A DNA stretch of 64,000 bases from Trypanosoma brucei (Eukaryota). Where the stretch lies: assembly GCA_000002445.1 (NCBI GenBank), contig CM000208.1, positions 2,464,001 to 2,528,000 of the forward strand. Reading direction: 5' to 3'. Below the pieces are notes generated by a model that saw only the letters and a program-made list of their open reading frames with translations, was not told the origin of the DNA and ran no database searches. Both the position numbers and the translations under genes were made by a program. This document shows positions 7,397 through 57,551 of the stretch, piece by piece; position 1 is the stretch's first letter, and each line of letters begins with the position of its first letter.

Positions 7397-8486
7397 AAAG
7401 GAACCCCCCTCCCTAACAAATGAAAAAATGCAAACAGAATAGCATTACTCCACCGCAACCGTCAAAGCTTTCCCCGAGGGGCGGTGCTAGCCATATTGCT
7501 TCACATAAATACAAATGCATATATATACATATTTATTTATATTTTTCCCCCTAGTTGTTTGCGTCCCGTTTTGTTGCGGGACATGCCCATCCTTCGGTTA
7601 GAATCAGTTGGTTGCTGTGCAAACCGGGGGCGACAGGGAAGACACGGGGAACGCAGTAATAAAAGGCGCAGTCGCACAATTTGCATGGATGGGTGCTCGT
7701 ATTTCCGCTGTGGTGAGAGGGCTTGGGTAGAGTGAATTTGCCTTTAAAACGTTTTCGCTTTTCTCTCAAGTGGGCACTATTTCCATGTATATGTCAGTGC
7801 TAAATTCCTGTTCACGGTTGGAAATTAACAGGGATTGCCGCATTAGCAACGGAGATGTCGAAAGAGAGATGCAGATCATGTTTTCCCTGTCCCTCCTCGG
7901 AGTGTTGCTTCCCACATACTTTGAGTGTATCATGAGAATGTCACACTATCGTCAGTTTTCTGCATTCAAAGGGTTTAAGGCCGTACAAAAAAAAAAAATC
8001 CACCCGTAGCCGGCGTAAGATTAACTACGTGCAGCTGCGTCTCGATGTAACGTGGAAAAATGGATCGTGGTAGTTTGCGCAACTCTCTTTCCTCAAAAGA
8101 CAGAAGCGGTCGGAAACGCCCAACGAAAACCTCTCATCACAGAGTTTCGTGGAACATCTGAACAGCTGCTGCAAATTCATTTGAGTTGCTGTCTATCTCC
8201 GCCTCTCTGATTCTCATTTACCTGAATATTAGATGTGCAGAACGCACATAAGGCAACGGCACTAAGTAAGCAAGTATAGAATCTCGGAGTTATAAAGACC
8301 GACTGCCGTTGCAACAACGAGCTCCTTCAGCACGCGAATATTTGCGAGAGATGCGGGGCCGAGACTTATCAAATCAAATAAGGGGTAAGCGATCGGCATG
8401 GACAGTAGGCGAATTCCGTACAAAAGCCGTGGCAAAGCACCTTGATGGGCTACGGAAAGTACATGCTGAAGGGGGAAGAAACGAAT

Positions 8487-8523
<37 letters not shown>

Positions 8524-9085
8524 GTGAACGGTTGAGCCCCGCCGGGGGCGTATCGCTAGCGACTCGGCAGTGGTGACACCACCACCTCAACGTGGGCTCA
8601 TGCATTCCGCTACCTCGCATTTTTCGGGGGGGGGGAATCCGGGGGCCGGGAGAGGTTCCACACTCTTATGGGGAACACTGTTTTGAATTCTCCGTCTACG
8701 GCACAACCGCTAACTACGTCCTGTCAGGTCAGCGTTTTCTTCACAGCATTCCCCCCCCCCCGCCCTCCCGTCCTGGAACGAAGACTATCTCGTCGAAATC
8801 CTTATGGCTTTCCTTCCCACGCCATCTTCTTTCGCATTAAGTGCCTCACAGTTGTTCAGCTACCTCAATTTCTTAACCGCATCGAATCTCCTTCCGAGAG
8901 TGCCATTTCCCACTTCTTGACTTACACCTCACCAGACACTGCTATTAACTGAAAAAAAAAAAGTCAAACCCGGTCATTACACACTGTACCAAAAAAAAAA
9001 ATATGAAACGGCTCCCCACCTGAGCGAGAACCCTCATCATTGAATAAAAGCATCATTGAATAAAAGCAAGTGTTGCAAGACCACT
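7397..9085. other. Convergent strand-switch region (+ block meets - block), a likely pol II termination zone
   Basis: The + strand genes end at 7396 and the - strand genes start their 3' ends at 9086. The region is non-coding and low-complexity: (TA)16, a G10 run at about 8625 and a C11 run at about 8750. Confidence 0.6.
8491..8522. repeat. (TA)16 dinucleotide microsatellite
   Basis: A perfect tatata… run is seen directly in the sequence. Confidence 0.95.
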
Positions 9086-10207
9086 TTACACCATCGCAGC
9101 GACAAGCGAAATTACCAACCGAACCCTCCAATCACCATGCGAATGCACCGCCGAGTCCCCAAAAAAATTCTTTTGTCGCTTGTGTGTGAAATTCCCACAC
9201 CTTCTGATCATGTAGTCAAGAAGCCGTTTCCCGCTACCGCTCGTGTCCTTGCTTGTCGTCATATTCTTTTCCTGCAAGCTTTCCAGTGCATCCTCAACCA
9301 CTGCCAGCACCTCCTTGTTGATCTTCTGAAACTCTCCAAAAAGTTTCGCGGTCGATGTCAGGGTCGGCACTGTCTTGGTCGGGTGTTCCTCCCATACGAC
9401 ATCTGAACTGTAAGAACTTCCGCGAACTGTACCCTTTGCTCCAGAGCTGGCTTCCCCGCCCTTCTTAATGCCGAGCATCCCGTCACCCCAGGTAATGTGT
9501 TTTGTTGGCTCGATTTTGTAACCTTTATTACGGGAATCCATGTGCACAAGATAGCCCCCACCATTTCCTCCCTTCGTCAGGTGGCAGTTCGCACCACTGC
9601 TTTCCAGTGGATCGGTGTTGTTAAGCTGCAGTGCTTCATCCAACATGGTTGCAAATTCCTTTCCATCACCATCAAAACCGCCGTCTTCACTAGCCCCAGT
9701 GCCGTCGAAACTTGCCGTCCCAAAGCACCCCGTGAAGTTTTGGCGATCTTTGACACAATAGCTATTGTTATCGTTTCCCCCAATAGGCCCCACGAAAACA
9801 CTTAACATTTCATCCAGTCTCCCCGCAGCTAGTGACGCGGCTGCCACAAGTTTTGTCCCGACGTCCCACAGTTTCTTCACGAGTTTCCTTATCATCGCTT
9901 TCTTCCCTTCAAGGGTATATGTTATAAACACCTTCGCCTTGGTACACTCGAAGCCACTCGAATTACTTCTCAATACCTTCAGTTTCGCATAATTCCCCAT
10001 GTGACTCACCTTTTCCATCATCTTTTCGACCGCCTCCGTCTTAGTCAAAACATATCTGTACACGCCACTCTTCAGCATACGAGATGCACTGCAGATACCT
10101 CGCGCCGCCTCACCGGACAGCGGTCTGTTTGTTTCAGCGCTCCCGAACGAATGCAGCATAAACACCAACGCCACTAGCCCTTTTATTGTCTTCCCCATGG
10201 TTGTCAT
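9086..10207 (-). CDS. PAG4: Procyclin-associated gene family protein (ESAG6/7 transferrin-receptor-like). Fourth PAG of the array, probably PAG4.
   Basis: It has a signal-peptide-like N-terminus, then a conserved core shared with the three upstream paralogs (…AAGRLDEM/F…VF… and GGGY…WGDG… motifs). Its position is last in the EP1-EP2-PAG array. The gene name comes from the published locus order, not from sequence alone. Confidence 0.65.
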   Translation of the reverse strand: MTTMGKTIKGLVALVFMLHSFGSAETNRPLSGEAARGICSASRMLKSGVYRYVLTKTEAVEKMMEKVSHMGNYAKLKVLRSNSSGFECTKAKVFITYTLEGKKAMIRKLVKKLWDVGTKLVAAASLAAGRLDEMLSVFVGPIGGNDNNSYCVKDRQNFTGCFGTASFDGTGASEDGGFDGDGKEFATMLDEALQLNNTDPLESSGANCHLTKGGNGGGYLVHMDSRNKGYKIEPTKHITWGDGMLGIKKGGEASSGAKGTVRGSSYSSDVVWEEHPTKTVPTLTSTAKLFGEFQKINKEVLAVVEDALESLQEKNMTTSKDTSGSGKRLLDYMIRRCGNFTHKRQKNFFGDSAVHSHGDWRVRLVISLVAAMV

Positions 10208-10323
10208 ATCGCTAAAACTAACGCGAAAGGGAAAAAAATGTGATTTATCAACCCCTCTGTTATACTAATTTTCTAGATCTTTCGTGCTAACGTTTGAATA
10301 ATGGAGTAAATCACCGAAAACAT

Positions 10324-11532
10324 TTAGTCGTCCTTTCCCCAATTTCCGCCAAATATCTTCCTCCACGCCTTTCTGAACATTCTTCGGAAGAAGCTCCTCC
10401 TCCCCAACCCTCCACACAACCCAATCTCCGTCATCAGAAGGTCTTTGTCGGCATCCTTTACCTGACCTGCCGAGAGCCAATCCTGTTTAGTACGGCTATT
10501 CAGCGCGGAAACGTTTTCAATTGGAAGACTTCCTAGTCCATTCAGTATTTTCATGGCATCCGCCCTCCTCCCAATAGTTTTTTCTGTCCACTCCTCCGTG
10601 AGACTCCTATATATGTCGCCGTACTCACTTACCTGCTCTTCAAACGCCCGGTAAGCATCCATTGCTGCCCTCAGTGTGGGGACGTTTGTTGTTGGATTTT
10701 CCTCCCACATCATATCGTAACTATATGTCTCATTCCTCGTATCTCCTATGTATGCGGTTTCGCCAACTCCATCTTTCTTTACTCCAAAGATTCCATCGCC
10801 CCAAAGCAAGTTAGTCGTGAGGCTCGCGTTTCCCAGGTATCCTCCCCCCGAACTTCCGCGCACCAGCTGACACCCCTGTGACTCCCCTCCCGTGTATCTT
10901 GGGTCGTTATTGCTCAGCTTTAGGTGCCTTCTAATTGCTTCCTCCAGGTTTGCTCTGCCCTCCGCTTGTGAACCCTTTTTCTCTTCAACATCCTCTACAG
11001 AGAGGAATTCTGCAGCATCTACAGCCGTTTTCCCCCCTTGAAAACAGTCGTGAAGCTCCGCCTTAGTTGCTGCTTCACCTCGTGCACCCGCAGCGCAAGA
11101 AAAAAATTCAACCCCGTTTCTGTTATTCGGTTGCTGGAAAACACTAACGAACTCATCCAACCTCCCCGCTGCCAGCCCCGCCGCTGCTGCTAGTGATAAC
11201 CCTTTCTTCCGGACACTCGCGATCATACCGACCATCCTATCCAAACCACCCACCATGTACTTGAGAAAAAATGCCATTTTGTCGCATTCGGGTCCCGTCT
11301 CCTTCTCTTTTACAACCTTCAACTTCGCCAGCTTTACCATTTTTTCCACATCTTCCAACATCGCTTCTGAAACGTCTGTTTTCTTGACAACATACTGGTA
11401 CATTTCCTTCAACGCCTTACTCACCCCACATACGCCCTGCATTGCCTCCAACCTCAGCGCCCCTCTTTCACCAGGGCCGCCGGCACTTGCCACAGCTACG
11501 ACCGCCGCTATTGTGAATACGACCCTTATCAT
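10324..11532 (-). CDS. PAG2: Procyclin-associated gene family protein (ESAG6/7-like), probably PAG2. Start placed at the internal Met (MIRVVFTIAAVVAVASAGG…); the ORF-track start at 11664 would overlap the upstream gene.
   Basis: Paralog motifs are present (AAAGLAAGRLDEFVSVF; GGGYLGN…LWGDG). The start is chosen by alignment of the signal peptide with the paralogs. The reverse-complement ATG at 11530-11532 was verified. Confidence 0.6.
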   Translation of the reverse strand: MIRVVFTIAAVVAVASAGGPGERGALRLEAMQGVCGVSKALKEMYQYVVKKTDVSEAMLEDVEKMVKLAKLKVVKEKETGPECDKMAFFLKYMVGGLDRMVGMIASVRKKGLSLAAAAGLAAGRLDEFVSVFQQPNNRNGVEFFSCAAGARGEAATKAELHDCFQGGKTAVDAAEFLSVEDVEEKKGSQAEGRANLEEAIRRHLKLSNNDPRYTGGESQGCQLVRGSSGGGYLGNASLTTNLLWGDGIFGVKKDGVGETAYIGDTRNETYSYDMMWEENPTTNVPTLRAAMDAYRAFEEQVSEYGDIYRSLTEEWTEKTIGRRADAMKILNGLGSLPIENVSALNSRTKQDWLSAGQVKDADKDLLMTEIGLCGGLGRRSFFRRMFRKAWRKIFGGNWGKDD

Positions 11533-11653
11533 TTTCCCAGAGCCACCTAAAGAAGAAAAAGATAGAGCACATACCTGCATCCTGATGCCCAATACACTTC
11601 CACCCACCCATCCCCCTCCCCCAAAAAAATACACACATATATTAGTAAAGTGC

Positions 11654-12766
11654 TTATACCCCACAATCCTTCAACTCTTCCCCCAGAAGCCTGTCCTCCA
11701 CACGTTCCCCATCCACTTGCGCCACCCAGTCCTCCATGCTCTTTTCTTCTTCGTCATCTTCCCCCTCCGTGTTTTTATCAACAGCAGAATTTGCTTTCCT
11801 CCCAAGTGTCCCGAGATCCTCCACATACAGATTCTCCTGAACGAAACGATCTACTAAATGTTTATGCGACGCGTCGACTTTTCTTTCCAGTTCTGCAAAT
11901 AGTTTATAGTCTTTCACCACCTTTACTAGGGTGGGATTCCCTCCCGTTGGATTTTCCTCCCACACCACTGCGGTGTCATACGTTGTCGCCCGGGTGTTTC
12001 CCTTAAACCCCGTCATCTGGGATCCCGACTTGACGACACCGAGCACTCCGTCACCCCATATGATATTCTCAGAGAGATCGCCATTTCCCATATAGCCACC
12101 GCCCGCCTTCCCAACTGTAAGCTGGCATCCCAAATCCTTGCCAAAGTCGTGCCTTGGGTCACCTCCATCCACAAGCAAGCTATCGTGAAGCACGCTTTCC
12201 AAATTCATTTCGAACGGATTTTCAAAAAGGTTTTCGCCTTCTGTAATTTTGAGAGACTCCCACTCACCGCTGTCTTTGTTCTTGGCGTAGCAGCTGGGTA
12301 GCACTTCTTCAGGGAAATTCACACTTAGACCACCGATGCAAGAGTTATTCGCGTCTCTATGGGCCTGAACGAAAACGGACACCATTTCATCCAATCTTCC
12401 TGCGGCAATGCCCGCTTCTCCCACTAATCTCCTTCCAACGTCCCACAACTCGTCCACTTCCCTGACCATGTTCTGCTCATTGATTCTTACCTGTGTAAGG
12501 AATACTCTTAGTGTTCCACACTTCAGTCCTTTGTTCCATTCTGTCAATAATTTCAGTCGTACGACTTTCTGGAGCAGTTGGACTTCCTCGAGTTTTCTGT
12601 CAGCCTCCATGAGTTTCTGCTCGACGAAACCGTGCACAGCCTTTAGTTTTTTTGAGGTATTACATAACGCTTTTATTGCGGACAATTTCAAAGCTGCCCC
12701 AGCGTCCGCATGATGACAACAACCACTTACTAACGCCACTACTAAAAATGCCACTGTTCTTCGCAT
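11654..12766 (-). CDS. PAG5: Procyclin-associated gene family protein (ESAG6/7-like), probably PAG5. Start at the internal Met (MRRTVAFLVVALVSG…); the ORF extends to 12829.
   Basis: Paralog motifs are present (AGIAAGRLDEMVSVF; GGGYMGN…WGDG). The N-terminus aligns with the other PAGs from the internal Met. Confidence 0.6.
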   Translation of the reverse strand: MRRTVAFLVVALVSGCCHHADAGAALKLSAIKALCNTSKKLKAVHGFVEQKLMEADRKLEEVQLLQKVVRLKLLTEWNKGLKCGTLRVFLTQVRINEQNMVREVDELWDVGRRLVGEAGIAAGRLDEMVSVFVQAHRDANNSCIGGLSVNFPEEVLPSCYAKNKDSGEWESLKITEGENLFENPFEMNLESVLHDSLLVDGGDPRHDFGKDLGCQLTVGKAGGGYMGNGDLSENIIWGDGVLGVVKSGSQMTGFKGNTRATTYDTAVVWEENPTGGNPTLVKVVKDYKLFAELERKVDASHKHLVDRFVQENLYVEDLGTLGRKANSAVDKNTEGEDDEEEKSMEDWVAQVDGERVEDRLLGEELKDCGV

Positions 12767-12847
12767 TTGCTGAAGAAAACAAAAGATGTCTGGCACCTGC
12801 AACCCACTAAGTTTTCCCTTAAACCACACAAACTAAAAAATACGATT

Positions 12848-14002
12848 TTAAAACAACAAAAATAACAACGCGAGGGTCCTCCTGAGAGAGCCAATCCTGC
12901 CAACACCACACATCGCCATCTCCTCCAACAGCTTCTCCTCTTGCACCGTTTCTCTGTTCCCGAGCACGACGAAGGACTTCCCACTATCCTCATCTACCAC
13001 TACTGTGCTTTTATTTCCGTGGGTGCCCGTGTTCACAATAGCTTGCGCGTATTCCCAGTTCCAGTGTGCGCCGGTTTCGTGCGCCAGCTCTTCGATGTGA
13101 GTATACAAGTTCACAAATTTGCGAAGCTCTCGGTAGGCGTTTCTAAGAACGGGGACGTTGTTAACGGGGTCTTCCTCCCAAGTTACATCGTGTATTAGAA
13201 CCTCTGCACGGGTTTTTCCTGTCCCCCCAACGAATCCTCTTCCACTTCGTTTAAGGGAAATAATTCCATCTCCCCAGAGTATTCTTCTGGAGGTGCTGTT
13301 TTCGGAGAGGTAGCCGCCCCCCGGACGGGTGTTTGTTAGGTGGCAGTTTGCGCTGTGGACGTAGCGTTCCAAGGGGTTTCCACCGCCACCAGTGAGCCTA
13401 AGCAGTTCGTTCATACTCTCCCGTGTCATGTTCATTTCCTCCACCCTTTCCATGCGGTGCATATCCCCCAAAGAAATAAATTCATCCTTCTCCGAGTCAC
13501 TTAAATAGCAATTCAACAACTGATTCCGCGTCGCGTGGTGCTCGCTATTTCCTACGCAAAAATCCCCTTTCCCACTGGAATACGCGCGCCGCCACACATT
13601 TATCATTTCATCCAACCTCCCCGCCGCTATCCCTGCTGCCCCTACCGCTGAGTATCCAAGATATCTCAACCTCTTCAATTCTCTCCTCTTCACCCTATTC
13701 ACTTTACTCCCCACACGTTTCAAAAACTTCGCGATCCCCGTGCACGAGGTCCAATTGCTATTTCCCCCTTCATTTCCCCTAACCCTCACAATCTTCAACC
13801 TCACCAACTCCACCATATCCTCAAACTCCCTCACCTTCTCGGTTGCATACTTAGTTTTCGCTTGGACGAAGGCATACACCGATTTCAGCCTCTTCGACGC
13901 ATTACAGAGCGCTTCCGCAGCTCCACTCAAACTCAGTGCGCCACTGTCCGCGGAGGCGCTACCAGTAAGTACAAAAAAGGACACAATCACTAATACCTTC
14001 AT
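12848..14002 (-). CDS. PAG1: Procyclin-associated gene family protein (ESAG6/7-like), first PAG after EP2, probably PAG1. Start at the internal Met (MKVLVIVSFFVLTGSASA…); the ORF extends to 14101.
   Basis: Paralog motifs are present (AAGIAAGRLDEMINVW; GGGYLSEN…WGDG). The reverse-complement ATG at 14000-14002 was verified. It lies immediately downstream of EP2 in the transcription direction. Confidence 0.65.
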   Translation of the reverse strand: MKVLVIVSFFVLTGSASADSGALSLSGAAEALCNASKRLKSVYAFVQAKTKYATEKVREFEDMVELVRLKIVRVRGNEGGNSNWTSCTGIAKFLKRVGSKVNRVKRRELKRLRYLGYSAVGAAGIAAGRLDEMINVWRRAYSSGKGDFCVGNSEHHATRNQLLNCYLSDSEKDEFISLGDMHRMERVEEMNMTRESMNELLRLTGGGGNPLERYVHSANCHLTNTRPGGGYLSENSTSRRILWGDGIISLKRSGRGFVGGTGKTRAEVLIHDVTWEEDPVNNVPVLRNAYRELRKFVNLYTHIEELAHETGAHWNWEYAQAIVNTGTHGNKSTVVVDEDSGKSFVVLGNRETVQEEKLLEEMAMCGVGRIGSLRRTLALLFLLF

Positions 14003-15758
14003 GAGCGTGCGAACCCTATTCGCGATGGCAAAGGTCAAGCGAAAAAGGATAATCAAAGAGACCATTTTCGATGATTGATGAAACAGGAAAGACCGCGGCA
14101 AGTTGTGACGCCCCCACTTGGGGACTGGAAAATCCGCCGGGGATGCGCCTGCCAGATTCAGGCTTCAGCAACGGCAACGGCGTTAGTGTTGGCGGGGAAG
14201 GGAAGGTGCAAGGCGCCTTTTTGCAGCTGGAATTTAAAGCTTAACCGACAGCATGAAATCATCCGTGACACTGTCTTATTTCCCTCCAAAACCATTGGAT
14301 ACGCCGTGGTTGGCACACGGCCCATTGCCATCAATTGCTGAGGTGGGCTCGTGTTGCCGGCGGTGGGATCCAATGCACTATGGCGCATCAGAGAAGGAAG
14401 AGCGACCCCCCTGATACTTAGGGGGGTCAAAACAGGGTTTCCAGGCTACAAACCGTTCTTAACGCTATCCGCGACAACACGTTGGTGGGTAGGAAAGTGT
14501 CGGGTAGGGGCTTAAAAGTGAGATTGACCGATGGCAACTATTCTCGAGATGGCATAAAACCCTAACCGCACCCCGCCGACGCTTAGAAATTAGGTCCAGG
14601 AAAGAAAGTCAAGCCCGACCAAGGACCTCCTTTTCTTCGGTTTTGGCTTTGTCGAAAGGACACGAAATCGATCCACCGCGGGGCGCGCAGTGGACTTGTT
14701 ACTTATTTAACTGACTCCTAAACGAGAAAGCTCCCCTGCGGCGCGCGACGCACATCATCTCAAAGGCGATGTGGGAGAGAAAACACTGCGAGAACATATG
14801 ACCACCGACGAGCCGGTGAATGCCCCAGAAGTATTTCAAAAAATGTCACACTCTCCATTGATTGTCCCAGCATATTTCACAAAGTGGACCAAAACAGAGG
14901 GCAGTGCAGTAAATACGTAAAGTTCATGGAAACAACGCGCTTACCCTCTCCGCAGCCTCTCCTCCCCAACAGATCAAGTGGCAGCAGCTCACTCAACTGA
15001 ATCGCTCCCCTGACGAGAACAGTTAAATAAAGGCAAGGCAAAAGGCAAAACACCGCTCAGGCCTCAATTTTGAACAGTTACGGTGAACTTCCTGAAGGTG
15101 CTTTAAAGTTTCCCCGACATATTAACAAACATGATGATGCACCACCGTAGGCGAAGAAGGAATCATCACCAGGAATGTGCTTCCTTCAACCGCTGCTTCC
15201 CATGTTGCAACTCCACGGTGTCAAACGGAAGCTGAGATGGCGGAAATATCGAGGGACAAATCGCTTGAGTCATCAAAAGTCCATTTGTCTCCCATTTCTA
15301 GCCTGAGGTTTTAGAAGGAACTATTTTCCCAGTACGAAAAAAGGACAAGGCAAAAAGTTCGAAAAAAAAAAAGTTCAGTCACAAATGGAGGAGGTTGCTG
15401 TCAACCATTGCAGGAACAAGACATAGGAGAAGACCGCAAATGCAGTGGATGAATTTTTGACAAAACCATACGAATGGTTTACAGAAGAAACCGTTTGGTA
15501 GAAGCCAAGGAACACATTGACAGGCACACGCAGAAGTCTACAGGGCTGCGTGCTACCGCCGACGGTTCCGAGGCATAAAAAAAAAAATAGAACTCAAAAA
15601 AATAGGTTGAAAAAAAATATTACGTATATGCAAGTGTCCTGTCGCCAAGGGACGTCATAAAGCGGGCGCATCGCGCCAAAGGAAAGGTCAAAGAAATAAC
15701 TGGGGCCACCCTTGTTAAAAAGTTTTGACCCCCCAGAGAATTTTCTGTTTACATGAGC

Positions 15759-16148
15759 TTAGAATGCGGCAACGAGACCAACGGCCGCGATTGCAAACGG
15801 AAGAGCAACAGACTTCAGCGTTGCAGCACCAGGTTCAGGTTCAGGTTCAGGTTCCGGCTCGGGTTCCGGCTCGGGTTCAGGTTCGGGTTCAGGTTCGGGT
15901 TCAGGTTCGGGTTCAGGTTCAGGTTCAGGTTCGGGTTCGGGTTCGGGTTCGGGTTCAGGTTCAGGTTCGGGTTCAGGTTCAGGCTCAACTTCGTCCTGGA
16001 CCTTGGTTCCCTTCTCGCCTTTGCCTTTGCCTCCCTTAGTAAGACCCTTGTCTTCTGGTCCTTCAGCGGCTGCGGCAAATCCCACGCCAGCGAAGAGGTT
16101 CGCGCTGAACAGAAGAATAGCGAGCAGATAAAGGGAACGAGGTGCCAT
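15759..16148 (-). CDS. EP2: EP procyclin, non-glycosylated EP2-type. Has about 26 Glu-Pro dipeptide repeats and a GPI-anchor signal.
   Basis: The protein reads [54 protein letters not shown](EP)[24 protein letters not shown]. This is a canonical procyclin N-terminus and C-terminus. It has no N-x-T sequon before the EP tract. Confidence 0.9.
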
Positions 16149-17077
16149 TGTGAATTTTACTTCTTGGTGTAATTGAAGTCTTCAAGTTGAAAAAATGGGG
16201 AAATGGCATATATGAATGCGCAGATCAACTGGGATAACCAGCATTGCATTGCCCTCTCATCTCTGAGGTGCCTTTCATCCCTAGGGGACAATTAACCGAA
16301 ACTCGGATAAATAAATCACTCTCCCGACAAGAATAGCTCAAGAGGGGGAGAGGCAATAGAAAAGGCACAGCACTCAGCCCTTAACTGCCTGTAGTAACCG
16401 CTGCGAGCTTCCTTCCATATTCATACAAAGTCTTCAAAAGCACACACCCGTCAACCTCCAACATCGTTTCTCCAGCAGCAACGCAGCAGTGGGGGGCAGG
16501 GCAGCGAAACAACTTCAGCTGCGGGGCCCATCTGAAGCAGGGAAACACTGCACATAAAACCACCAATGAAATAAAGCAAAATGCAGACCCCTTCGCCCAA
16601 GTTGGCCGGTCTAACACTTGTTTCCCATTTCTGGCCTGAAGGTTTAGAAGGAACTATTATTCGAACCCAAAAGAAGAGAAGGCAAAAAAATTAATGAAAT
16701 AGCTCATCCAACAAATTAAAAGGCAGAGCGCCACATTCACACGCAGCACGCACAATAACACAAGGCACCAATAATAATTTTAAGATCCAAATTCAAAGGA
16801 ATGAAAAAAAATAGAAGTGAAACGCTTAAAATTATGGAATACGCAACCGAAACATCACAGAAATCTACAGGGCTGTGGGTCTCAGGCGATGGTTAATAAG
16901 ACATTAGAAAGGATGTCACCAAAAATATATAACGAAAAAATATTAAATGAATGTCCACACTGTTTTACAAGAAACAGCAGGAAACAAACACGATGCACCA
17001 TATGGAGGCGATATAAATGAAAGGAACCTTTTCAAAGGGTTTCGTTCCTCCGAGGCGCTTTACACGCTTGCATCCGC

Positions 17078-17503
17078 TTAGAATGCGGCAACGAGAGCAG
17101 CAGCCGCGACTGCAAACGGAAGTGCAACAGATTTCAGCGTTGCAGCACCAGGTTCAGGTTCAGGTTCGGGTTCAGGTTCCGGCTCGGGTTCCGGCTCGGG
17201 TTCAGGTTCAGGTTCCGGCTCGGGTTCAGGTTCGGGTTCAGGTTCAGGTTCAGGTTCAGGTTCAGGTTCAGGTTCAGGTTCGGGTTCGGGTTCGGGTTCG
17301 GGTTCAGGTTCAGGTTCAGGGTCGGGGTCAGTGCCATTGGTATCGTCGGCGCCGACCTTGGTTCCCTTCTCGCCTTTGCCTTTGCCTCCCTTAGTAAGAC
17401 CCTTGTCTTCTGGTCCTTCAGCGGCTGCGGCAAATCCCACGCCAGCGAAGAGGTTCGCGCTGAACAGAAGAATAGCGAGCAGATAAAGGGAACGAGGTGC
17501 CAT
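17078..17503 (-). CDS. EP1: EP procyclin, N-glycosylated EP1-type. Has about 28 EP repeats preceded by [12 protein letters not shown].
   Basis: The protein reads [62 protein letters not shown](EP)[24 protein letters not shown]. It matches the known EP1 sequence almost residue for residue. It is the first gene of the unit. Confidence 0.9.
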
Positions 17504-17800
17504 TGTGAATTTTACTTCTTGGTGTAATTGAAGTCTTCAAGTTGAAAAAAATGGGGAAAAGGAAAAAAAACTCGAAGGCGCGTGCAGCGATCACGAGAAC
17601 ATGTTAAACTCAGTACTCACCCGATAACCCCTATTTTCAATGCACGCCCACCCAGAGACACGGAACAGCACAAAACAACCATATCACTTCCACAAAATGG
17701 ACATTTTACACAAAATGCACTATTGACTAGTACTCAACTATACTAATAAGAGATACCTATCGGACACGATATACTGTGAAAAGGATATTAAGCTCACTAT
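17504..17800 (-). promoter_or_regulatory. Expected RNA polymerase I procyclin (EP1) promoter region plus the splice-acceptor/5' flank
   Basis: In T. brucei the procyclin promoter lies within about 250 bp upstream of the first EP gene's trans-splice site. The 5' flank 17467-17560 is duplicated verbatim upstream of EP2 (16112-16200), but the sequence beyond about 17565 is unique to EP1. Exact promoter elements were not identified by eye. Confidence 0.45.
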
Positions 17801-19205
17801 GCATCTGAAAACGCTTTCACCTCACAACCTACTGACACACACCTTTCCGCTTAACCCCAATGACAACAAAGGCTGACTGCACCTCACATCTGAGGAAGAG
17901 GTCCAGGGGAGCGGTGCCTGTTCGCGGTGCGGAATTGTTGTTTCCCCCTCTTCCTCATCCGCCCCCTCGGTTCCGTGGGCCCTGACTCCCGAAGAGTTTT
18001 CGAGAATTGTTAATAGAGAAGGGATTCGCTCACCATATTCGGAACAATACACTTGTCAGAAGTTTGGCAATCCAGTTTGGGGGCACTGAAAAGCACTTTG
18101 TGGTGAATCAGCGGCATTTAGGCCGGCAGCGGTATGTTTTGCTACGAAACACCGGGCATCGAAGAAGTCAGAAAGCCCTTCAGCACGACGGCTGATGGAG
18201 AACGCTGGTAAAGTTTTCCTTTCATGCGCCCTCAACGAGAACTAGCGGAAATTAAAACCAATTTCGGCGGATAAAGGCCCCGCAACTCGGCACATCGGCG
18301 GCGTTGGTGGGCCGACTCACCGATAAAACGAGCCGACACCTGCCACCACACACACTGGTATATGAAGGGGGCACCTCCGGTGGGCACGCAACTCCCAATG
18401 AGCTTTTGCCGTGGTGGGAACCGTGGCGCGCCTGATTGGTTGAAATTTCGTCGGCACAATGACCTGCCAGGATGCGTTGGGCTTGGTTAAGGATGTTGGC
18501 GCTTTGGGGAAACGAAGACCCACGCTCAGCGGAGCCTGAACATGGGACCACATCTGCGTGGTTTATTGGGCTGCCAAGGCCTCCGAAAGGCGAGCCCGAT
18601 CCTGGAAACGGGTGGAGCAAGTTCCTAAGAGGGTTGCTCTCCCGCGTTTCACGGCCCACTGCCTACGCGCGCAGGGTAAGTAAATTGGCTTAGACATAGC
18701 CCCCGAAAGGGGAAAAAGAAGGTCAAGGATGGCAACCGGGTTCTGTCCGTGACATTGCGAGGGACAATTGGTTGCCATGACCGGAAGGCGCCCGCCACCC
18801 ATGGGTTTCTACCCACCCCCAAATGAGGCGAGGGTTTTGCAGGCTAGGAATATCTATGATTGAATCAAATATTGCCATGCCTCCCCCCGATGTGGGACAC
18901 GCAAATGCGTTACGCTCCCCTCCCCCCCCCCCCCCGAAGGGACCGAACGCACAGCCTCCTCCACGAGGTGGAACAAAGGAAACGGTAGGACAGCAGCGGC
19001 GCACGACTACCACACAACCACTGAGCACACCGATGAGAAGCGATACGCTTGGAACATGGGGCGCACCGAAGGGAAAAAGCACTGAAGAAAAGGGCGGAGC
19101 GGGTGAATCGAAGGGCTCCCCGAATGTAAACACGCGCGCACTGAAGAACACACACCGCGACAGTTGCTCAAAGTCAGCGCGACCCGGGTGTTGCATTGCA
19201 CCTAG

Positions 19206-19372
19206 GCGCACACGCAACTCCACTGCCTCCTGTAGCAAGGCCGCGTAAGTTTGGGGGCCTCCAAGGGCAAGTCAAAACCCGTCGAGGCGGAGCCTCGGTT
19301 AGATAACGGTAACGGAACACGCTACAGCGGGTCCGGCGTCGCTACAGGAGGCAGTGGAGTTGCGTGTGCGGA
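19206..19372. repeat. Perfect 31-bp inverted repeat (gcgcacacgcaactccactgcctcctgtagc … gctacaggaggcagtggagttgcgtgtgcgg) with a spacer of about 105 bp. A potential long stem-loop inside a GC-rich island.
   Basis: The two arms (about 19207-19237 and 19340-19370) are exact reverse complements. This was seen directly and is also reflected in mirror peptides …RTRNSTASCS… on both strands. Confidence 0.85.
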
Positions 19373-22065
19373 AACCACAGTGCAGGGTGCGCAGTGGATA
19401 ATTTGTGGAAAGGCTACCATCCGCGTCCGACCACGTTGTGACGGCCGAATGGTTTCCATCACGACATGGCTGCCCACGTATCACGACGAAACCGATAAGA
19501 GATTCGCAGGGTCCAATGGAAGGAGTGAAAAAAACGGGGTGAAGATGAGGAAAGAAAGGCAACACTTACGAGCATTCCGAAATTAAAGCCCGTGATACGG
19601 AGGAGCTGTGTCAAATTGCGAATGACGGAGACGATGTTGGGATACACCTCACAGCATTAAGCTGGGGTCGCCGTTCTCACTGGCATCCCTGGATGCGATA
19701 ACAAGGAGTTGGGCCATATCGGCGAAACGCTACCAGCAATAGCCGAGCTTTAAGCAGTAAGCGAGGAAAGCTGGTGCAACCGGGAACCCACCACTGGGTG
19801 TGCGACCGGGAAGGGAAGGAAATCCGCAGCCAGTTGGAGTTGGTATTCCAATGGTCGTCGGGCTACTTGGCCACTACCACCCGTACCTCAACCGCCTCAC
19901 ACACCCAACAGCATGCACTTACTCATGCACCAAGACGCATGAATAAATGCACTGGGAAGGTAAATAAATTCAGCTTTAAAAAAAAAAGATGAGCCAGGGA
20001 GATTACGTAAAAGGGGCTCATCCGCACCTCCCGCACACCGCAAAATAATAATAATAATAACGCTATGTTAAAAAGCACAAGCAACGGAAAAGCCTCTGCT
20101 TACATTTGTTAATGCACAGGCGCAGCGCAGCGGAGAGAACCCTGCAATTCTCCATGCGCAAAATCACTGTTCAACCGAAAGGGACGACACCCCGAGTGGC
20201 GCAAGTACGGCGGCCAGGGCATGTTTACAAACATGCGTTGAGTATGGCGACTCGACAATCCCCCAAAAATTATGAAAATGGGGGGCAGCAAGACCCGCAC
20301 CCACAACCCACACGGTTTTAGAGCAAACACGCCTACAGGCATCAAAAAAAGTAAAAAAAACTGGCACAGTCATAAAAGGTCCCAGCCGACTTTCCAGCAC
20401 GTTCTCCACCTTCACCTTTGAACGTTAGAAACATTACAACGGTGATCTGTGTGACGCACCTTTGTTAAATTACCCTTAAAAGATAGACAAAAAGCGAAGG
20501 ATCATTAGCGACGTCGCAATACAACCGAGTTTCCGCAACAACCGCAACGACACCCCATTTCCACACAATGCAAAACCGAAGGCAGCACTTCCTCACCACC
20601 CTTCCGCCTCCGCACTACTTGTCATGACCCCCCGCGTTGTCGCCCCCGTAGTGATACCGCTTCCGTGATTTCAAAGGACATAAACACTTACAAAACTGGT
20701 ACAAATCCCTGCACCATCAACATGATAGTGGTTGGCATACTTTCCAACCGCTGTGGTCTGAACTCGCACTACCTTCCCAACCTCTACAATCACACAAAGG
20801 GACAAAAAAATCAGAGGTTCTACTCCAACCTACGGCGTATTCAGTACCACAGCCCAGCATCCGAAGGGACAAAACACGCACCAACAACTCGGGCACGATT
20901 TACACCGTTCCCTCGCACCGACAAGCCACACAAACACCAAATTCATTACGAAATATAACCATCCCCTCACTAATACAAGGCGAAACAATAAGCATAATCA
21001 AACAGCTGACAGACAGAAATCCACCGCAGGGCTCAATGTAAGCTAACTTCGCCCTCCCCCTCCCTCACCCTATGGCCTCAGTGTTGCCCTGTAAAACCTT
21101 CTCTGACACTAGTCAAGCAGAGGTAAAAACTAACCTAACCCTAACACTCTCACACAATGAAAGGAGAATCCGTGGGGAATTTGGGAAAAGGCAAAGCACA
21201 CACGGTAAGCAGTCGGCACAACCCCTGGCGCAAAGAAGGCGCAACTGCACGCAAACAAGGCATTCGATTCAGTACCTTCTGTAGGATATGTGGGTTGCCA
21301 TACCGTAGGCAGTTACCAGTAACAGAAACGTATGGGGAAGGAAAGAATCAAAATATAGCTAAAGCTCCTCAACGCATATATATATACATATATTACCGTT
21401 TCACAGCCAATTCATACATCACACTTAACGCTCCCTCTAAACAACGACCCCAAACAATAACATCCCCAGGTACCTCACCAACAACAACAACAACACAATT
21501 CTTAATTAGCAAATATGGCTTCAATGGAGGCAAAGGAAGAAAGGAAGGACGTACACTCCAACTGTGAGATCCCGCTCGAATCAGCTGTAGCGACGAGAGT
21601 AGTTAACGGAAGGTCGACCCAGGGACCCACATCGCATCCCTACGCTGCCGTTAACATACCCTCAAGTGAAAATTAAAAAAAAAAATGGACCAAAAGTTGA
21701 TTTCAGCAAAAGTGCGTCCGAAAGAAAGGGCACGAAACAACAAACAGAAAATAATCAGCAGCAAAATAAATACATCACATTACGTGGCTATCACTGGACA
21801 CAACCAATAGTTGGTCAGCACGTGCCAGTAGTCGATCGACAAAATACATAATAATCAGCACAGTTAGCACAGGAGAGATAATATCAGCCCTTTCACGCAA
21901 CGCATTATCCACACTCACAACACGAAACAACTACGTTGAGGACAAACGAATGGCGCCACCCAATGGCATACTCCTGCGTACATTGATCTCCACAGTGCAG
22001 CACTCATACGTAAAGACCTTCCAATCACAGTTTAAAAAAGAGGAAAATACCGCTTCTCAAATATT

Positions 22066-25000
22066 CTACACCTTGCGACCCGAGTGATTAACGAAGGTTG
22101 CGCGGTTAGTCGTAACATACATCGAAGGGTCCACATGACGGACCTGTACTGCAGGTTTCCCAATGGGACGAGGAGGACATTGTACCTCAGGCCTGATAAA
22201 CCTGTTGCGGTATTCGCTGCTTACACCTTGCATAGAAATGCTTGACTGTTTAACAGTCGGAGCAGCCTTTGGCATATAAGGTTTGCTGGCACCGTGTGCC
22301 TTGAAATCTCTATGCGCGGTACTCACGTACATATCAGCATCTACATGACAAGGGCAGGAATAACCAACATTAGGGGCCTTTTTCCACTTTGACACACGTA
22401 CTCCGTTACCAGTTGGTTGATCGCCCACAGCCGCAGCAGCACACTCAGTAGTAGCTGCAACAGCCGCAGCAGCACCTCCATTACTCTCCCCACTTGCGAC
22501 ACACTTCATATCAGTGGAGACATCAACCTTCTTTGATGTCACACCACCATCACTTTTACCTTTCACGACCTTCTTAACAACAATAGCATCAGCTACAGAT
22601 GAAGCAGTAAAGCTATGCCTCTTAGATATAACAGATTCATCACCAAAGGAAGACTCCCTACACGAACTCTTATAACAAGAAGAATCATAGCGACAATACG
22701 AATCCTTTGCAGTTGTCCTAAAGTGGCCATCATCACCACCGCGACTTGACACTTTCACAACTTCCTCACGGAGCACATCACGCTTATATGCGGCAGGGTC
22801 AATTGGTGCATACGATTCTGCAGTGGTTGAGCGGAAGTGACTGGGATCAACATGACGAGGGCCCGTTGCCTCCTCTTCCTCACGGAGCACATCACGCTTA
22901 TATGCGGCAGGGTCAATTGGCGCATACGATTCTGCAGTGGTTGAGCGGAAGTGACTGGGATCAACATGACGAGGGCCCGTTGCCTCCTCTTCCTCACGGA
23001 GCACATCACGCTTATATGCGGCAGGGTCAATTGGCGCATACGATTCTGCAGTGGTTGAGCGGAAGTGACTGGGATCAACATGACGAGGGCCCGTTACCTC
23101 CTCTTCCTCACGGAGCACATCACGCTTATATGCGGCAGGGTCAATTGGCGCATACGATTCTGCAGTGGTTGAGCGGAAGTGACTGGGATCAACATGACGA
23201 GGGCCCGTTACCTCCTCTTCCTCACGGAGCACATCACGCTTATATGCGGCAGGGTCAATTGGTGCATACGATTCTGCAGTGGTTGAGCGGAAGTGACTGG
23301 GATCAACATGACGAGGGCCCGTTACCTCCTCTTCCTCACGGAGCACATCACGCTTATATGCGGCAGGGTCAATTGGTGCATGCGATTCTGCAGTGGTTGA
23401 GCGGAAGTGACTGGGGTCAACATGACGAGGGCCCGTTACCTCCTCTTCCTCACGGAGCACATCACGCTTATATGCGGCAGGGTCAATTGGCGCATACGAT
23501 TCTGCAGTGGTTGAGCGGAAGTGACTGGGGTCAACATGACGAGGGCCCGTTACCTCCTCTTCCTCACGGAGCACATCACGCTTATATGCGGCAGGGTCAA
23601 TTGGCGCATACGATTCTGCAGTGGTTGAGCGGAAGTGACTGGGGTCAACATGACGAGGGCCCGTTACCTCCTCTTCCTCACGGAGCACATCACGCTTATA
23701 TGCGGCAGGGTCAATTGGTGCATACGATTCTGCAGTGGTTGAGCGGAAGTGACTGGGGTCAACATGACGAGGGCCCGTTACCTCCTCTTCCTCACGGAGC
23801 ACATCACGCTTATATGCGGCAGGGTCAATTGGCGCATACGATTCTGCAGTGGTTGAGCGGAAGTGACTGGGGTCAACATGACGAGGGCCCGTTACCTCCT
23901 CTTCCTCACGGAGCACATCACGCTTATATGCGGCAGGGTCAATTGGCGCATACGATTCTGCAGTGGTTGAGCGGAAGTGACTGGGGTCAACATGACGAGG
24001 GCCCGTTACCTCCTCTTCCTCACGGAGCACATCACGCTTATATGCGGCAGGGTCAATTGGCGCATACGATTCTGCAGTGGTTGAGCGGAAGTGACTGGGA
24101 TCAACATGACGAGGGCCCGTTGCCTCCTCTTCCTCACGGAGCACATCACGCTTATATGCGGCAGGGTCAATTGGCGCATACGATTCTGCAGTGGTTGAGC
24201 GGAAGTGACTGGGATCAACATGACGAGGGCCCGTTACCTCCTCTTCCTCACGGAGCACATCACGCTTATATGCGGCAGGGTCAATTGGCGCATACGATTC
24301 TGCAGTGGTTGAGCGGAAGTGACTGGGGTCAACATGACGAGGGCCCGTTACCTCCTCTTCCTCACGGAGCACATCACGCTTATATGCGGCAGGGTCAATT
24401 GGCGCATACGATTCTGCAGTGGTTGAGCGGAAGTGACTGGGATCAACATGACGAGGGCCCGTTACCTCCTCTTCCTCACGGAGCACATCACGCTTATATG
24501 CGGCAGGGTCAATTGGCGCATACGATTCTGCAGTGGTTGAGCGGAAGTGACTGGGATCAACATGACGAGGGCCCGTTACCTCCTCTTCCTCACGGAGCAC
24601 ATCACGCTTATATGCGGCAGGGTCAATTGGCGCATACGATTCTGCAGTGGTTGAGCGGAAGTGACTGGGATCAACATGACGAGGGCCCGTTACCTCCTCT
24701 TCCTCACGGAGCACATCACGCTTATATGCGGCAGGGTCAATTGGTGCATACGATTCTGCAGTGGTTGAGCGGAAGTGACTGGGGTCAACATGACGAGGGC
24801 CCGTTACCTCCTCTTCCTCACGGAGCACATCACGCTTATATGCGGCAGGGTCAATTGGTGCATACGATTCTGCAGTGGTTGAGCGGAAGTGACTGGGGTC
24901 AACATGACGAGGGCCCGTTACCTCCTCTTCCTCACGGAGCACATCACGCTTATATGCGGCAGGGTCAATTGGCGCATACGATTCTGCAGTGGTTGAGCGG

Positions 25001-28000
25001 AAGTGACTGGGGTCAACATGACGAGGGCCCGTTACCTCCTCTTCCTCACGGAGCACATCACGCTTATATGCGGCAGGGTCAATTGGCGCATACGATTCTG
25101 CAGTGGTTGAGCGGAAGTGACTGGGGTCAACATGACGAGGGCCCGTTACCTCCTCTTCCTCACGGAGCACATCACGCTTATATGCGGCAGGGTCAATTGG
25201 TGCATACGATTCTGCAGTGGTTGAGCGGAAGTGACTGGGGTCAACATGACGAGGGCCCGTTACCTCCTCTTCCTCACGGAGCACATCACGCTTATATGCG
25301 GCAGGGTCAATTGGCGCATACGATTCTGCAGTGGTTGAGCGGAAGTGACTGGGATCAACATGACGAGGGCCCGTTACCTCCTCTTCCTCACGGAGCACAT
25401 CACGCTTATATGCGGCAGGGTCAATTGGCGCATACGATTCTGCAGTGGTTGAGCGGAAGTGACTGGGATCAACATGACGAGGGCCCGTTGCCTCCTCTTC
25501 CTCACGGAGCACATCACGCTTATATGCGGCAGGGTCAATTGGCGCATACGATTCTGCAGTGGTTGAGCGGAAGTGACTGGGATCAACATGACGAGGGCCC
25601 GTTACCTCCTCTTCCTCACGGAGCACATCACGCTTATATGCGGCAGGGTCAATTGGCGCATACGATTCTGCAGTGGTTGAGCGGAAGTGACTGGGGTCAA
25701 CATGACGAGGGCCCGTTACCTCCTCTTCCTCACGGAGCACATCACGCTTATATGCGGCAGGGTCAATTGGTGCATACGATTCTGCAGTGGTTGAGCGGAA
25801 GTGACTGGGATCAACATGACGAGGGCCCGTTACCTCCTCTTCCTCACGGAGCACATCACGCTTATATGCGGCAGGGTCAATTGGTGCATACGATTCTGCA
25901 GTGGTTGAGCGGAAGTGACTGGGATCAACATGACGAGGGCCCGTTACCTCCTCTTCCTCACGGAGCACATCACGCTTATATGCGGCAGGGTCAATTGGTG
26001 CATACGATTCTGCAGTGGTTGAGCGGAAGTGACTGGGGTCAACATGACGAGGGCCCGTTACCTCCTCTTCCTCACGGAGCACATCACGCTTATATGCGGC
26101 AGGGTCAATTGGCGCATACGATTCTGCAGTGGTTGAGCGGAAGTGACTGGGATCAACATGACGAGGGCCCGTTACCTCCTCTTCCTCACGGAGCACATCA
26201 CGCTTATATGCGGCAGGGTCAATTGGTGCATACGATTCTGCAGTGGTTGAGCGGAAGTGACTGGGGTCAACATGACGAGGGCCCGTTACCTCCTCTTCCT
26301 CACGGAGCACATCACGCTTATATGCGGCAGGGTCAATTGGCGCATACGATTCTGCAGTGGTTGAGCGGAAGTGACTGGGGTCAACATGACGAGGGCCCGT
26401 TACCTCCTCTTCCTCACGGAGCACATCACGCTTATATGCGGCAGGGTCAATTGGCGCATACGATTCTGCAGTGGTTGAGCGGAAGTGACTGGGATCAACA
26501 TGACGAGGGCCCGTTACCTCCTCTTCCTCACGGAGCACATCACGCTTATATGCGGCAGGGTCAATTGGCGCATACGATTCTGCAGTGGTTGAGCGGAAGT
26601 GACTGGGATCAACATGACGAGGGCCCGTTACCTCCTCTTCCTCACGGAGCACATCACGCTTATATGCGGCAGGGTCAATTGGCGCATACGATTCTGCAGT
26701 GGTTGAGCGGAAGTGACTGGGGTCAACATGACGAGGGCCCGTTACCTCCTCTTCCTCACGGAGCACATCACGCTTATATGCGGCAGGGTCAATTGGCGCA
26801 TACGATTCTGCAGTGGTTGAGCGGAAGTGACTGGGGTCAACATGACGAGGGCCCGTTACCTCCTCTTCCTCACGGAGCACATCACGCTTATATGCGGCAG
26901 GGTCAATTGGCGCATACGATTCTGCAGTGGTTGAGCGGAAGTGACTGGGGTCAACATGACGAGGGCCCGTTACCTCCTCTTCCTCACGGAGCACATCACG
27001 CTTATATGCGGCAGGGTCAATTGGCGCATACGATTCTGCAGTGGTTGAGCGGAAGTGACTGGGATCAACATGACGAGGGCCCGTTACCTCCTCTTCCTCA
27101 CGGAGCACATCACGCTTATATGCGGCAGGGTCAATTGGCGCATACGATTCTGCAGTGGTTGAGCGGAAGTGACTGGGGTCAACATGACGAGGGCCCGTTA
27201 CCTCCTCTTCCTCACGGAGCACATCACGCTTATATGCGGCAGGGTCAATTGGCGCATACGATTCTGCAGTGGTTGAGCGGAAGTGACTGGGATCAACATG
27301 ACGAGGGCCCGTTACCTCCTCTTCCTCACGGAGCACATCACGCTTATATGCGGCAGGGTCAATTGGTGCATACGATTCTGCAGTGGTTGAGCGGAAGTGA
27401 CTGGGGTCAACATGACGAGGGCCCGTTGCCTCCTCTTCCTCACGGAGCACATCACGCTTATATGCGGCAGGGTCAATTGGCGCATACGATTCTGCAGTGG
27501 TTGAGCGGAAGTGACTGGGATCAACATGACGAGGGCCCGTTGCCTCCTCTTCCTCACGGAGCACATCACGCTTATATGCGGCAGGGTCAATTGGTGCATA
27601 CGATTCTGCAGTGGTTGAGCGGAAGTGACTGGGATCAACATGACGAGGGCCCGTTACCTCCTCTTCCTCACGGAGCACATCACGCTTATATGCGGCAGGG
27701 TCAATTGGTGCATACGATTCTGCAGTGGTTGAGCGGAAGTGACTGGGGTCAACATGACGAGGGCCCGTTACCTCCTCTTCCTCACGGAGCACATCACGCT
27801 TATATGCGGCAGGGTCAATTGGTGCATACGATTCTGCAGTGGTTGAGCGGAAGTGACTGGGGTCAACATGACGAGGGCCCGTTACCTCCTCTTCCTTACG
27901 GAGCACATCACGCTTATATGCGGCAGGGTCAATTGGTGCATACGATTCTGCAGTGGTTGAGCGGAAGTGACTGGGGTCAACATGACGAGGGCCCGTTACC

Positions 28001-28839: not shown

Positions 28840-29169
28840 CCTTCCTTTGGTATTTTTGATTCCTATTTATTGTAAGTAGTTTTTACACTTATATTTCTGA
28901 AGGTAAGATGCTTCTTTTTCTTAGGTGATTTATGGATATTGAGTAGAGAAATTATATCCTGCAGAGGGGTGTGTGGTAAATTATCTTACAGCGAATATTC
29001 TAATTTTTTTTCATCATTTGGGGTTGAGTTAGCGGATATTAAGGTATACTTTTGGTGTTCAGTCATCACAGTTCCTTGTGGAAGGTGTTACTCATGCAAA
29101 TACACGTGACGTTAGGCGTTTGAGAAACTGCCTCCTTTTCTACATCTACTGACTGGCAACCGCTGGTCG

Positions 29170-29742
29170 TTACATTTGGGTTCTCGCGCCACAGTTCCTT
29201 CCCGCGGACAACTGTCTTTGCACGTGGTGGTTTAAAATGGTGACATCCATAGCAGACTTTGTTGTGCGAAATCGGTCAACCATGGCATCATCTACTGTTG
29301 GTTGGTTTACTGGTTTGGACAGTTTCCCAGTTAGTGCAAAGCGGTCTACGCCGCTGAGCGTGTTTAACGGTTTGCAATGGTGCTTTGGCTTCCCATACCT
29401 GCTATCAATCAGGTATCGCTGTGTGGCGCCATAGTCTTTGCTTGTTGCCACCACTTCATCGACTGTTGGTAGGCCGCTTCCAAATATAAGGCTCTTCCCG
29501 AGTCCACGCTGCCGCAACATCGGCCGGACAGCTGTAACACATGGGGTAGAGTAATCAGCCTTATAAACTGAGGACGGCAGCGGAGATTGGCCGTCTACTG
29601 CGATCGTGAATTTGCCATGCGCCTCATTGATGCGTGCGTCGAACCAGTTATCTACGAGGACACCGCTGTTGTAATGGTTGTCAAAACATGGAAGAACTCG
29701 CTTGTCCCCGGTGTGCATGCTGGCGCCTGCAACCGATTCCAC
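29170..29742 (-). CDS. Hypothetical 190-aa protein, copy A. An identical copy lies at 52607-53179.
   Basis: The ORF is conserved perfectly within both copies of the duplication and sits upstream of each MARP gene. No recognisable domain. Confidence 0.5.
   Translation of the reverse strand: MESVAGASMHTGDKRVLPCFDNHYNSGVLVDNWFDARINEAHGKFTIAVDGQSPLPSSVYKADYSTPCVTAVRPMLRQRGLGKSLIFGSGLPTVDEVVATSKDYGATQRYLIDSRYGKPKHHCKPLNTLSGVDRFALTGKLSKPVNQPTVDDAMVDRFRTTKSAMDVTILNHHVQRQLSAGRNCGARTQM

Positions 29743-56027: not shown

Positions 56028-57551
<1,524 letters not shown>

Follow-up and report, generated by a model that had tools for sequence, protein, structure and literature searches.

Two EP procyclin genes followed by four genes related to ESAG6 and ESAG7 raise the question of which trypanosome locus they form, and of which RNA polymerase transcribes them. 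They stand in a row on the minus strand of a 64-kb stretch of Trypanosoma brucei DNA (GenBank assembly GCA_000002445.1, contig CM000208.1, positions 2,464,001 to 2,528,000; hereafter the window, numbered from its first nucleotide). We conclude, with very little room for doubt, that they form the EP/PAG1 procyclin expression site, which in T. brucei brucei TREU927 lies on chromosome 10 and produces the surface coat of the insect stage. This locus is already known and has been intensively studied in work published over more than 30 years, as an earlier sequence-only reading of the same DNA rightly said of its organisation, and the identification is not a new finding. The expression site, on chromosome X, is said to have been described by König in 1989, Koenig-Martin in 1992, Liniger in 2001 and Haenni in 2006.

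Identity and layout of the locus

An open reading frame (ORF) scan of 7-20 kb gives the minus-strand order EP1, EP2, PAG1, PAG5, PAG2*, PAG4, followed by a 'T region' without long ORFs. By exact-sequence look-up, the four PAG proteins and the product of the convergent gene GU2 are identical, residue for residue, to EAN78417 down to EAN78413, which are consecutive accessions from a single contig and follow the window's gene order. Exact protein matches continue upstream on the minus strand, comprising EAN78423 and EAN78424 (hypothetical proteins), EAN78426 (APC3/TPR), EAN78427 (SMC2), EAN78428 (protein kinase), EAN78431 (DEAD-box helicase) and EAN78432 (trypanothione reductase). This succession of exact GenBank matches across the window therefore places it on TREU927 chromosome 10, and the exact matches to named GenBank PAG proteins mean that the four PAG ORFs are not chance. 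The published map of EP/PAG1 reads MARP, EP1, EP2, PAG1, PAG5, PAG2*, PAG4, T region and, on the opposite strand, GU2 (PMC2731899, Haenni et al. 2009). Reynolds et al. 2016 give this order too in their S8 Fig legend, MARP being on the upstream side and the T region and GU2 on the downstream side (PMC4721609).

The sequence-only reading had proposed two EP genes heading four tandem ESAG6/7-like PAGs on the minus strand. All six ORFs are there, and their matches to PF05887, PF00913 and the solved structure 6SOY agree with that description. Its choice of locus and organism is borne out by the identity to the consecutive TREU927 chromosome 10 entries EAN78413-EAN78417, and the order that it gave for comparison (EP1, EP2, PAG1, PAG5, PAG2 or PAG2*, PAG4) is the order found. 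Procyclin genes are present, and the matches are not to ESAG6/7 from a bloodstream expression site. The genes and their immediate neighbours are as follows, with ORF coordinates running from the ATG and including the stop codon.

17078-17503, minus strand: EP1 procyclin gene, 141 residues, with a signal peptide, an NGT sequon, DPDP with 28 EP dipeptides, and a glycosylphosphatidylinositol (GPI) signal in the form of a hydrophobic C-terminus
15759-16148, minus strand: EP2 procyclin gene, 129 residues, with KVQDEV, 26 EP dipeptides and then GAATLK, and without an N-glycosylation sequon
12848-14065, minus strand: PAG1 major ORF, 405 residues, EAN78417/XP_823245, named PAG1, from TREU927
11654-12766, minus strand: PAG5 ORF, 370 residues, EAN78416, labelled 'PAG1 polypeptide, putative', in a one-member cluster from TREU927 only
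10324-11580, minus strand: PAG2* ORF, 418 residues and 1257 nt, EAN78415, named PAG2
9086-10207, minus strand: PAG4 ORF, 373 residues, EAN78414/XP_823242, with 9086 as the end of the stop codon
7397-9085, minus strand: T region, the tail of the RNA polymerase I (Pol I) unit and convergent strand-switch zone, with small ORFs only, none above 94 residues
5987-7396, plus strand: GU2, last gene of the convergent RNA polymerase II (Pol II) polycistron, 469 residues, exact match to EAN78413 (hypothetical protein)
22066-28839, minus strand: MARP gene, nearest same-strand upstream neighbour and end of a long Pol II polycistron, with 51.5 copies of a 114-bp (38-residue) unit

Some of these names come from outside the GenBank entries. 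PAG5 is taken from the literature map, where it lies between PAG1 and PAG2* (PMC2731899), and GU2 from AAG59624, a 469-residue member of the same protein cluster that carries that label. The third PAG ORF, from 11580 down to 10324, has 1257 nt, equal to the published PAG2* ORF of 1257 bases (PMC2731899). The sequence-only reading was thus right in naming four PAGs, with the refinements that the third is the PAG2* variant and that GenBank labels the second 'PAG1, putative'.

Across the window, the large ORFs are all on the minus strand at 22-63 kb and all on the plus strand at 0.1-7.4 kb. The EP/PAG array therefore comes last in a long series of minus-strand genes and stands opposite a convergent series. 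The neighbours had also been anticipated correctly: a convergent plus-strand set ending in GU2 on one side, and on the other a minus-strand MARP with 51.5 units of 114 bp. Less exact were the limits of 9086-17800 originally set for the array, the lower of which is the PAG4 stop codon and does not close the transcription unit, while the upper falls inside a block conserved with chromosome 6 that reaches 18177. We would widen these limits to about 7397-18177. The locus also anchors the window as a whole and so aids the reading of other findings in it; on TREU927 chromosome 10 the window extends from the GU2 side of this locus past trypanothione reductase.

Procyclin and PAG proteins

Both EP proteins show the features of the procyclin family, namely a signal peptide, an acidic dipeptide repeat and a hydrophobic GPI-signal tail, and both match PF05887 (Trypan_PARP, procyclic acidic repetitive protein) along the full length of the profile, with 232 bits for EP1 and 226 bits for EP2 against a cut-off of 100 bits. 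EP1 starts MAPRSLYLL and has one N-x-T sequon, at residue 56. The distinction that the sequence-only reading drew between an EP1-type glycosylation segment and an EP2-type VQDEV holds, with the NGT sequon in EP1 and KVQDEV without a sequon in EP2. In the literature EP1 and EP3 are N-glycosylated, and a garbled sentence in the same source is taken here to mean that EP2 and GPEET are not (PMC4339879). What identifies the first gene as EP1 rather than EP3 is that the EP3-type segment reads differently in the T. b. gambiense DAL972 loci used for comparison, on chromosome 6 (L002) and chromosome 10 (L003).

Under the EP repeats, Tandem Repeats Finder reports 6-bp arrays of 30.5 and 26.3 copies. The repeat numbers quoted for strain 427 are 30 or 25, and 25 (PMC4339879), against 28 EP plus DPDP in EP1 and 26 in EP2 of the window; this difference is ordinary strain variation.

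All four PAGs match PF00913, the VSG A-type domain, at 30-60 bits (cut-off 22 bits). When a profile of the four was compared with the solved transferrin receptor 6SOY, ESAG7 (6SOY_B) was matched at E=1.6e-35 and ESAG6 (6SOY_A) at E=5e-32; PAG2* alone gave E=7e-18 and E=3e-17, respectively. PAG5, PAG2* and PAG4 are each 26-32% identical to PAG1, and cysteines together with the motifs AAGRLDE, GGGY, WGDG and WEE.P are invariant in all four. Self-comparison of the DNA found no near-identical sequence among the four genes, in agreement with the published statement that it is PAG2, not PAG2*, that has its 5' half in common with PAG1.

A word-index search with PAG1 matched only two proteins. Elsewhere on TREU927 chromosome 10 there is a truncated PAG1-like protein of 206 residues, EAN78123, in the same 90% cluster as PAG1. 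It is consistent with the dispersed PAG-like sequences that have been published at strand-switch regions.

Transcription, promoter zone and untranslated regions

The type of polymerase is not readable from DNA, and the assignment of this unit to Pol I rests on the literature. Procyclin units were found to be transcribed by Pol I through nascent RNA and run-on analysis (PMC2731899). Chromatin immunoprecipitation sequencing (ChIP-seq) and nascent RNA sequencing place Pol I on EP/PAG of TREU927 chromosome 10 itself (PMC10250216), and CITFA is required (PMC6562600). PAG mRNAs are 100-500-fold scarcer than procyclin mRNAs, and the 'Mid' part of the PAG1 5' untranslated region (UTR) and the PAG1 ORF lower Pol I elongation (PMC2731899).

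The procyclin promoter is about 250 bp in size. According to the literature, Pol I initiates at this promoter, just upstream of the EP1 splice acceptor, and produces a single polycistronic precursor from which individual mRNAs are released by trans-splicing of the capped spliced leader and by polyadenylation. It is this processing that enables Pol I transcripts to function as mRNAs. The literature also describes EP1 and EP2 mRNAs as abundant in procyclic forms, and their stability and translation as controlled stage-specifically by 3'UTR elements, among them the conserved stem-loop present here. In the same published scheme Pol I is attenuated by sequences in the PAG1 5'UTR and ORF, which makes PAG mRNAs about 100-fold rarer, and residual transcription crosses the T region and enters the convergent Pol II unit, where sense and antisense transcription overlap. 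The biological importance of the locus lies in this attenuation within the unit and in the overlapping convergent transcription, all of it long published. On the DNA, the elements expected from this scheme are placed as follows.

17537-17850, minus strand: expected Pol I procyclin promoter and start-site zone, then a polypyrimidine tract at 17541-17570; 94-99% identical to the sequence upstream of GPEET2 on chromosome 6
17504-17536, minus strand: EP1 splice-acceptor AG (17535-17536), the first AG past the polypyrimidine tract, and 31-nt 5'UTR (17504-17534)
16864-16875, minus strand: CAGCCCTGTAGA core of a stem-loop in the EP1 3'UTR, in the loop of a predicted hairpin
15537-15548, minus strand: CAGCCCTGTAGA core of a stem-loop in the EP2 3'UTR, in the loop of a predicted hairpin
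14066-15320, minus strand: long PAG1 5'UTR (1.25 kb) with upstream ORFs of 24-76 residues and a splice AG at 15321-15322 behind a polypyrimidine tract

A published genotyping primer described as lying 'upstream of the 5'UTR of EP1' matches at about 17725-17751, the sole match when 12-mers of the promoter zone were used in a text search. In a three-way alignment the upstream regions are 94-99% identical, too alike to resolve promoter elements. The splice acceptor was assigned by the rule for spliced-leader addition given in PMC2731899, and the 58 nt before EP1 recur before EP2, at 16149-16206.

The core CAGCCCTGTAGA occurs exactly twice in the 64 kb, once in each EP 3'UTR, against 0.01 occurrences expected. 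Apart from it the two 3'UTRs are dissimilar, and the stems of the predicted hairpins differ in sequence. We take this stem-loop to be the conserved '16-mer' regulatory element of procyclin mRNAs of Hehl (1994) and Furger (1997). Rfam, searched at the gathering threshold, gave no match in the 64 kb.

From the EP2 stop to the PAG1 ATG there are 1693 nt, and the published PAG1 5'UTR is 1264 nt long, its 'Mid' part being the Pol I attenuator (PMC2731899). The gaps between successive PAGs are 81, 73 (or 121) and 116 nt, in agreement with the 'extremely short 3'UTRs' described previously (PMC2731899). An element of about 45 nt, AATAGTTCCTTCTAAA..CTCAGGC.AGAAATGGGA, lies on the minus strand behind a polypyrimidine tract 3' of both EP1 (16615-16660) and EP2 (15282-15325). 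The EP1-EP2 intergenic region therefore contains an echo of the sequence with which the PAG1 5'UTR begins.

At the other end of the unit, the overlap of T transcripts with GU2 mRNA amounts to 700 nt, and in strain 427 transcription by Pol I goes on for about 2.5 kb more (PMC2731899). When TbMex67 is compromised, read-through extends up to the opposing Pol II start site (PMC10250216). Reynolds et al. 2016 describe antisense Pol II transcription from GU2 to EP1 and a dependence of the locus on H3.V (PMC4721609). The phrase 'embedded between pol II polycistrons', used in the first description of this DNA, is accurate as to placement, but the embedding is not a clean one, as in the literature the 3' end overlaps the convergent unit in antisense via the T region.

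The T region also contains a (TA)~16 microsatellite at 8490-8522, with runs of C10 and G11 (minus-strand reading) nearby at 8626-8635 and 8751-8761. A (TA)n tract is likewise present 3' of GRESAG2.1 at the chromosome 6 locus (L002 15380-15405).

Upstream of the unit, the MARP gene has the 38-residue repeats of which MARPs consist (PMC2289396), and a second MARP copy lies at 45959-52276, with a 114-bp array of 47.5 copies. The two belong to a segmental duplication, 21016-29951 against 44909-53388, which is 99% identical, each copy holding a MARP gene and about 1 kb on either side; six unrelated genes, including those for SMC2, a protein kinase and the APC3/TPR protein, lie between the copies. 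Neither MARP protein has an exact match in the protein collection by exact look-up. Between the MARP duplication and the procyclin block, 18177-21016 on the minus strand is 2.8 kb of unique sequence with no convincing ORFs, GC-rich (0.55) at 18-20 kb and T-rich on the minus strand. The DAL972 annotation gives a hypothetical ORF of 111 residues in this spacer (L003 4996-5331), which looks spurious. Pol II coming from the MARP unit would have to stop in 18177-21016 or read into the Pol I promoter. Farther upstream, trypanothione reductase, a drug target, is encoded at 56028-57506 on the minus strand; it matches EAN78432 exactly and differs only at its ends from the solved structures 2WOI and 6RB5.

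Related loci and rival explanations

Loci of T. equiperdum and T. b. gambiense served for comparison. In T. b. gambiense DAL972, the locus on chromosome 10 (L003) is collinear with the window in two stretches, from 24000 down to 13608 and from 11188 down to 315, at 96-99% identity. The window is 2.42 kb longer, the additional sequence (13608 down to 11188) comprising the whole of PAG5 together with the adjoining 3' part of PAG1 and 5' part of PAG2*. DAL972 carries the EP/PAG2 form, in which one chimeric PAG2 stands where the window has PAG1, PAG5 and PAG2*. The T. b. gambiense PAG2 tracks PAG1 up to a 17-nt identity and PAG2* beyond it:

13608-13624, minus strand: crossover on the PAG1 side, a 17-nt identity encoding AAGRLDE, with its partner at 11153-11169 in PAG2*; L003 10423-10458

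The breakpoint between PAG1 and PAG2 lies 457 nt into the ORF. In the literature the ORF begins at 1264 and the divergence falls at mRNA position 1721, a distance that is again 457 nt (PMC2731899). The polymorphism between EP/PAG1 and EP/PAG2 is already known (PMC2731899), and only the placement of the junction on the window is added here. In the DAL972 assembly, the second procyclin gene on chromosome 10 is of EP3 type rather than EP2, encodes 127 residues and is identical to the chromosome 6 EP3 in L002 (L003 6683-8297); gene conversion between the loci, or collapse in the assembly, could account for this.

The chromosome 6 locus of the same strain (L002) contains GPEET2, EP3, PAG3 and GRESAG2.1, with HpHbR upstream. 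Homology of the window to it is confined to 3.4 kb, from 18177 down to 14769. It starts sharply 674 bp upstream of the EP1 ATG (at about 18177) and stops about 550 nt into the PAG1 5'UTR, at the start of the PAG3 ORF. The first ~640 nt of the PAG1 5'UTR are published as common to PAG3 (PMC2731899), and the end of the homology lies within the first 552-640 nt of this UTR, as published. Identity to L002 varies along the block:

17851-18177, minus strand: upstream block, 5' edge of the paralogous duplication, 96.9%
17596-17850, minus strand: presumed promoter-zone segment, 94.1%
17504-17595, minus strand: segment that includes the EP1 5'UTR, 98.9%
3'UTRs and intergenic regions, minus strand: 89-91%
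14769-15320, minus strand: first part of the PAG1 5'UTR, 97.5%

At 17851-18177, conservation with chromosome 6 (96.9% over 327 bp) thus exceeds that of the presumed promoter zone (94.1%) and that of the procyclin 3'UTRs (89-91%). This segment might conceivably act as a functional boundary element, for example by stopping Pol II from the MARP unit, insulating the Pol I promoter or aiding replication activity, a suggestion prompted by its conservation that we consider rather unlikely. Alternatively, it would be a passive passenger of duplication or of gene conversion. Replication activity was reportedly once found for the PARP promoter region.

These comparisons bear directly on other ways in which the window could be read. 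The EP/PAG2 form, in which a chimeric PAG2 directly follows the procyclin genes and PAG1 and PAG5 are absent, has the same flanks (MARP, PAG4, T region and GU2) and is what DAL972 carries on chromosome 10. It is nonetheless highly improbable for the window, which has 2.42 kb that L003 lacks and in which PAG1 and PAG5 are complete and identical to TREU927 entries. That the window should instead be the chromosome 6 GPEET/PAG3 locus is next to inconceivable: the 3.4-kb block at 18177-14769 is indeed 89-99% identical outside the first coding region, but the first gene has EP and not GPEET repeats, neither PAG3 nor GRESAG2.1 is present, the homology halts at 14769 and 18177, and the upstream flank is MARP here as against HpHbR on chromosome 6. 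An origin of the ESAG6/7-like ORFs in a bloodstream VSG expression site, intact or remnant, would account for their matches to the VSG A-type Pfam domain and the ESAG6/7 structures. However, these ORFs are exact PAGs, distant from ESAG6/7 (a minority of residues is identical in the alignment), and the setting is chromosome-internal, with housekeeping genes on both sides, SMC2 and trypanothione reductase among them. Tandem Repeats Finder found only EP and MARP repeats as tandem arrays in the window, and therefore no 70-bp repeats; we attach a negligible probability to such an origin.

A further possibility concerns the polymerase rather than the locus. The array might owe most of its transcription to Pol II read-through out of the MARP polycistron, in which case Pol I transcription would not be valid for this copy. 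The MARP unit does stand head-to-tail with the EP genes, and no terminator is recognisable in 18177-22066 from the sequence alone. The run-on and nascent RNA data (PMC2731899), Pol I ChIP-seq on the TREU927 chromosome 10 locus (PMC10250216) and the locus map (PMC4721609) all speak against it, as does the fact that the 670 bp upstream of EP1 are 94-99% identical to the corresponding sequence of the chromosome 6 procyclin locus, and we give this explanation hardly any credence. Nothing contradicts the identification as an EP/PAG1 site, although DNA does not reveal the polymerase. Literature searches gave no sequence-level description of the Pol I start site and promoter domains. Exact look-up of EP1 and EP2 in the protein collection gave no match. 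When EP1 was used in a homology search, the matches were GPEET, 'procyclin A-alpha' and low-complexity noise from bacteria, with no EP-type procyclin among them; the collection seems to lack EP procyclins.

The EP/PAG1 site can finally be set beside the systems to which it is related. Chromosome VI's GPEET/PAG3 locus, also a Pol I unit, has in common with it the upstream block and promoter zone, the 5' and 3' regions of procyclin, and the PAG 5'UTR over its first ~550 nt. It differs in its own genes and flanks and, in the literature, in having a defined terminator region rather than an overlap with a convergent unit (PMC2731899). The EP/PAG2 locus of DAL972 resembles the window in its flanks, in EP1 as the first gene, and in PAG4, the T region and GU2. 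More distant are the transferrin receptor genes ESAG6 and ESAG7, which belong to a homologous fold family and, like the PAGs, are transcribed by Pol I together with a gene for a major surface coat. Unlike them, the PAGs, which are distant paralogues, are not telomeric, and the literature describes them as very lowly expressed and dispensable for tsetse transmission. To our knowledge no PAG binds transferrin, and the literature reports no transferrin-receptor function for these proteins. Overall, the window corresponds, with no difference of substance, to the published EP/PAG1 locus, which it matches in gene order, in the exact PAG and GU2 proteins, in the length of the PAG2* ORF, in the architecture of the PAG1 5'UTR and in the T region, with MARP upstream and GU2 convergent downstream.

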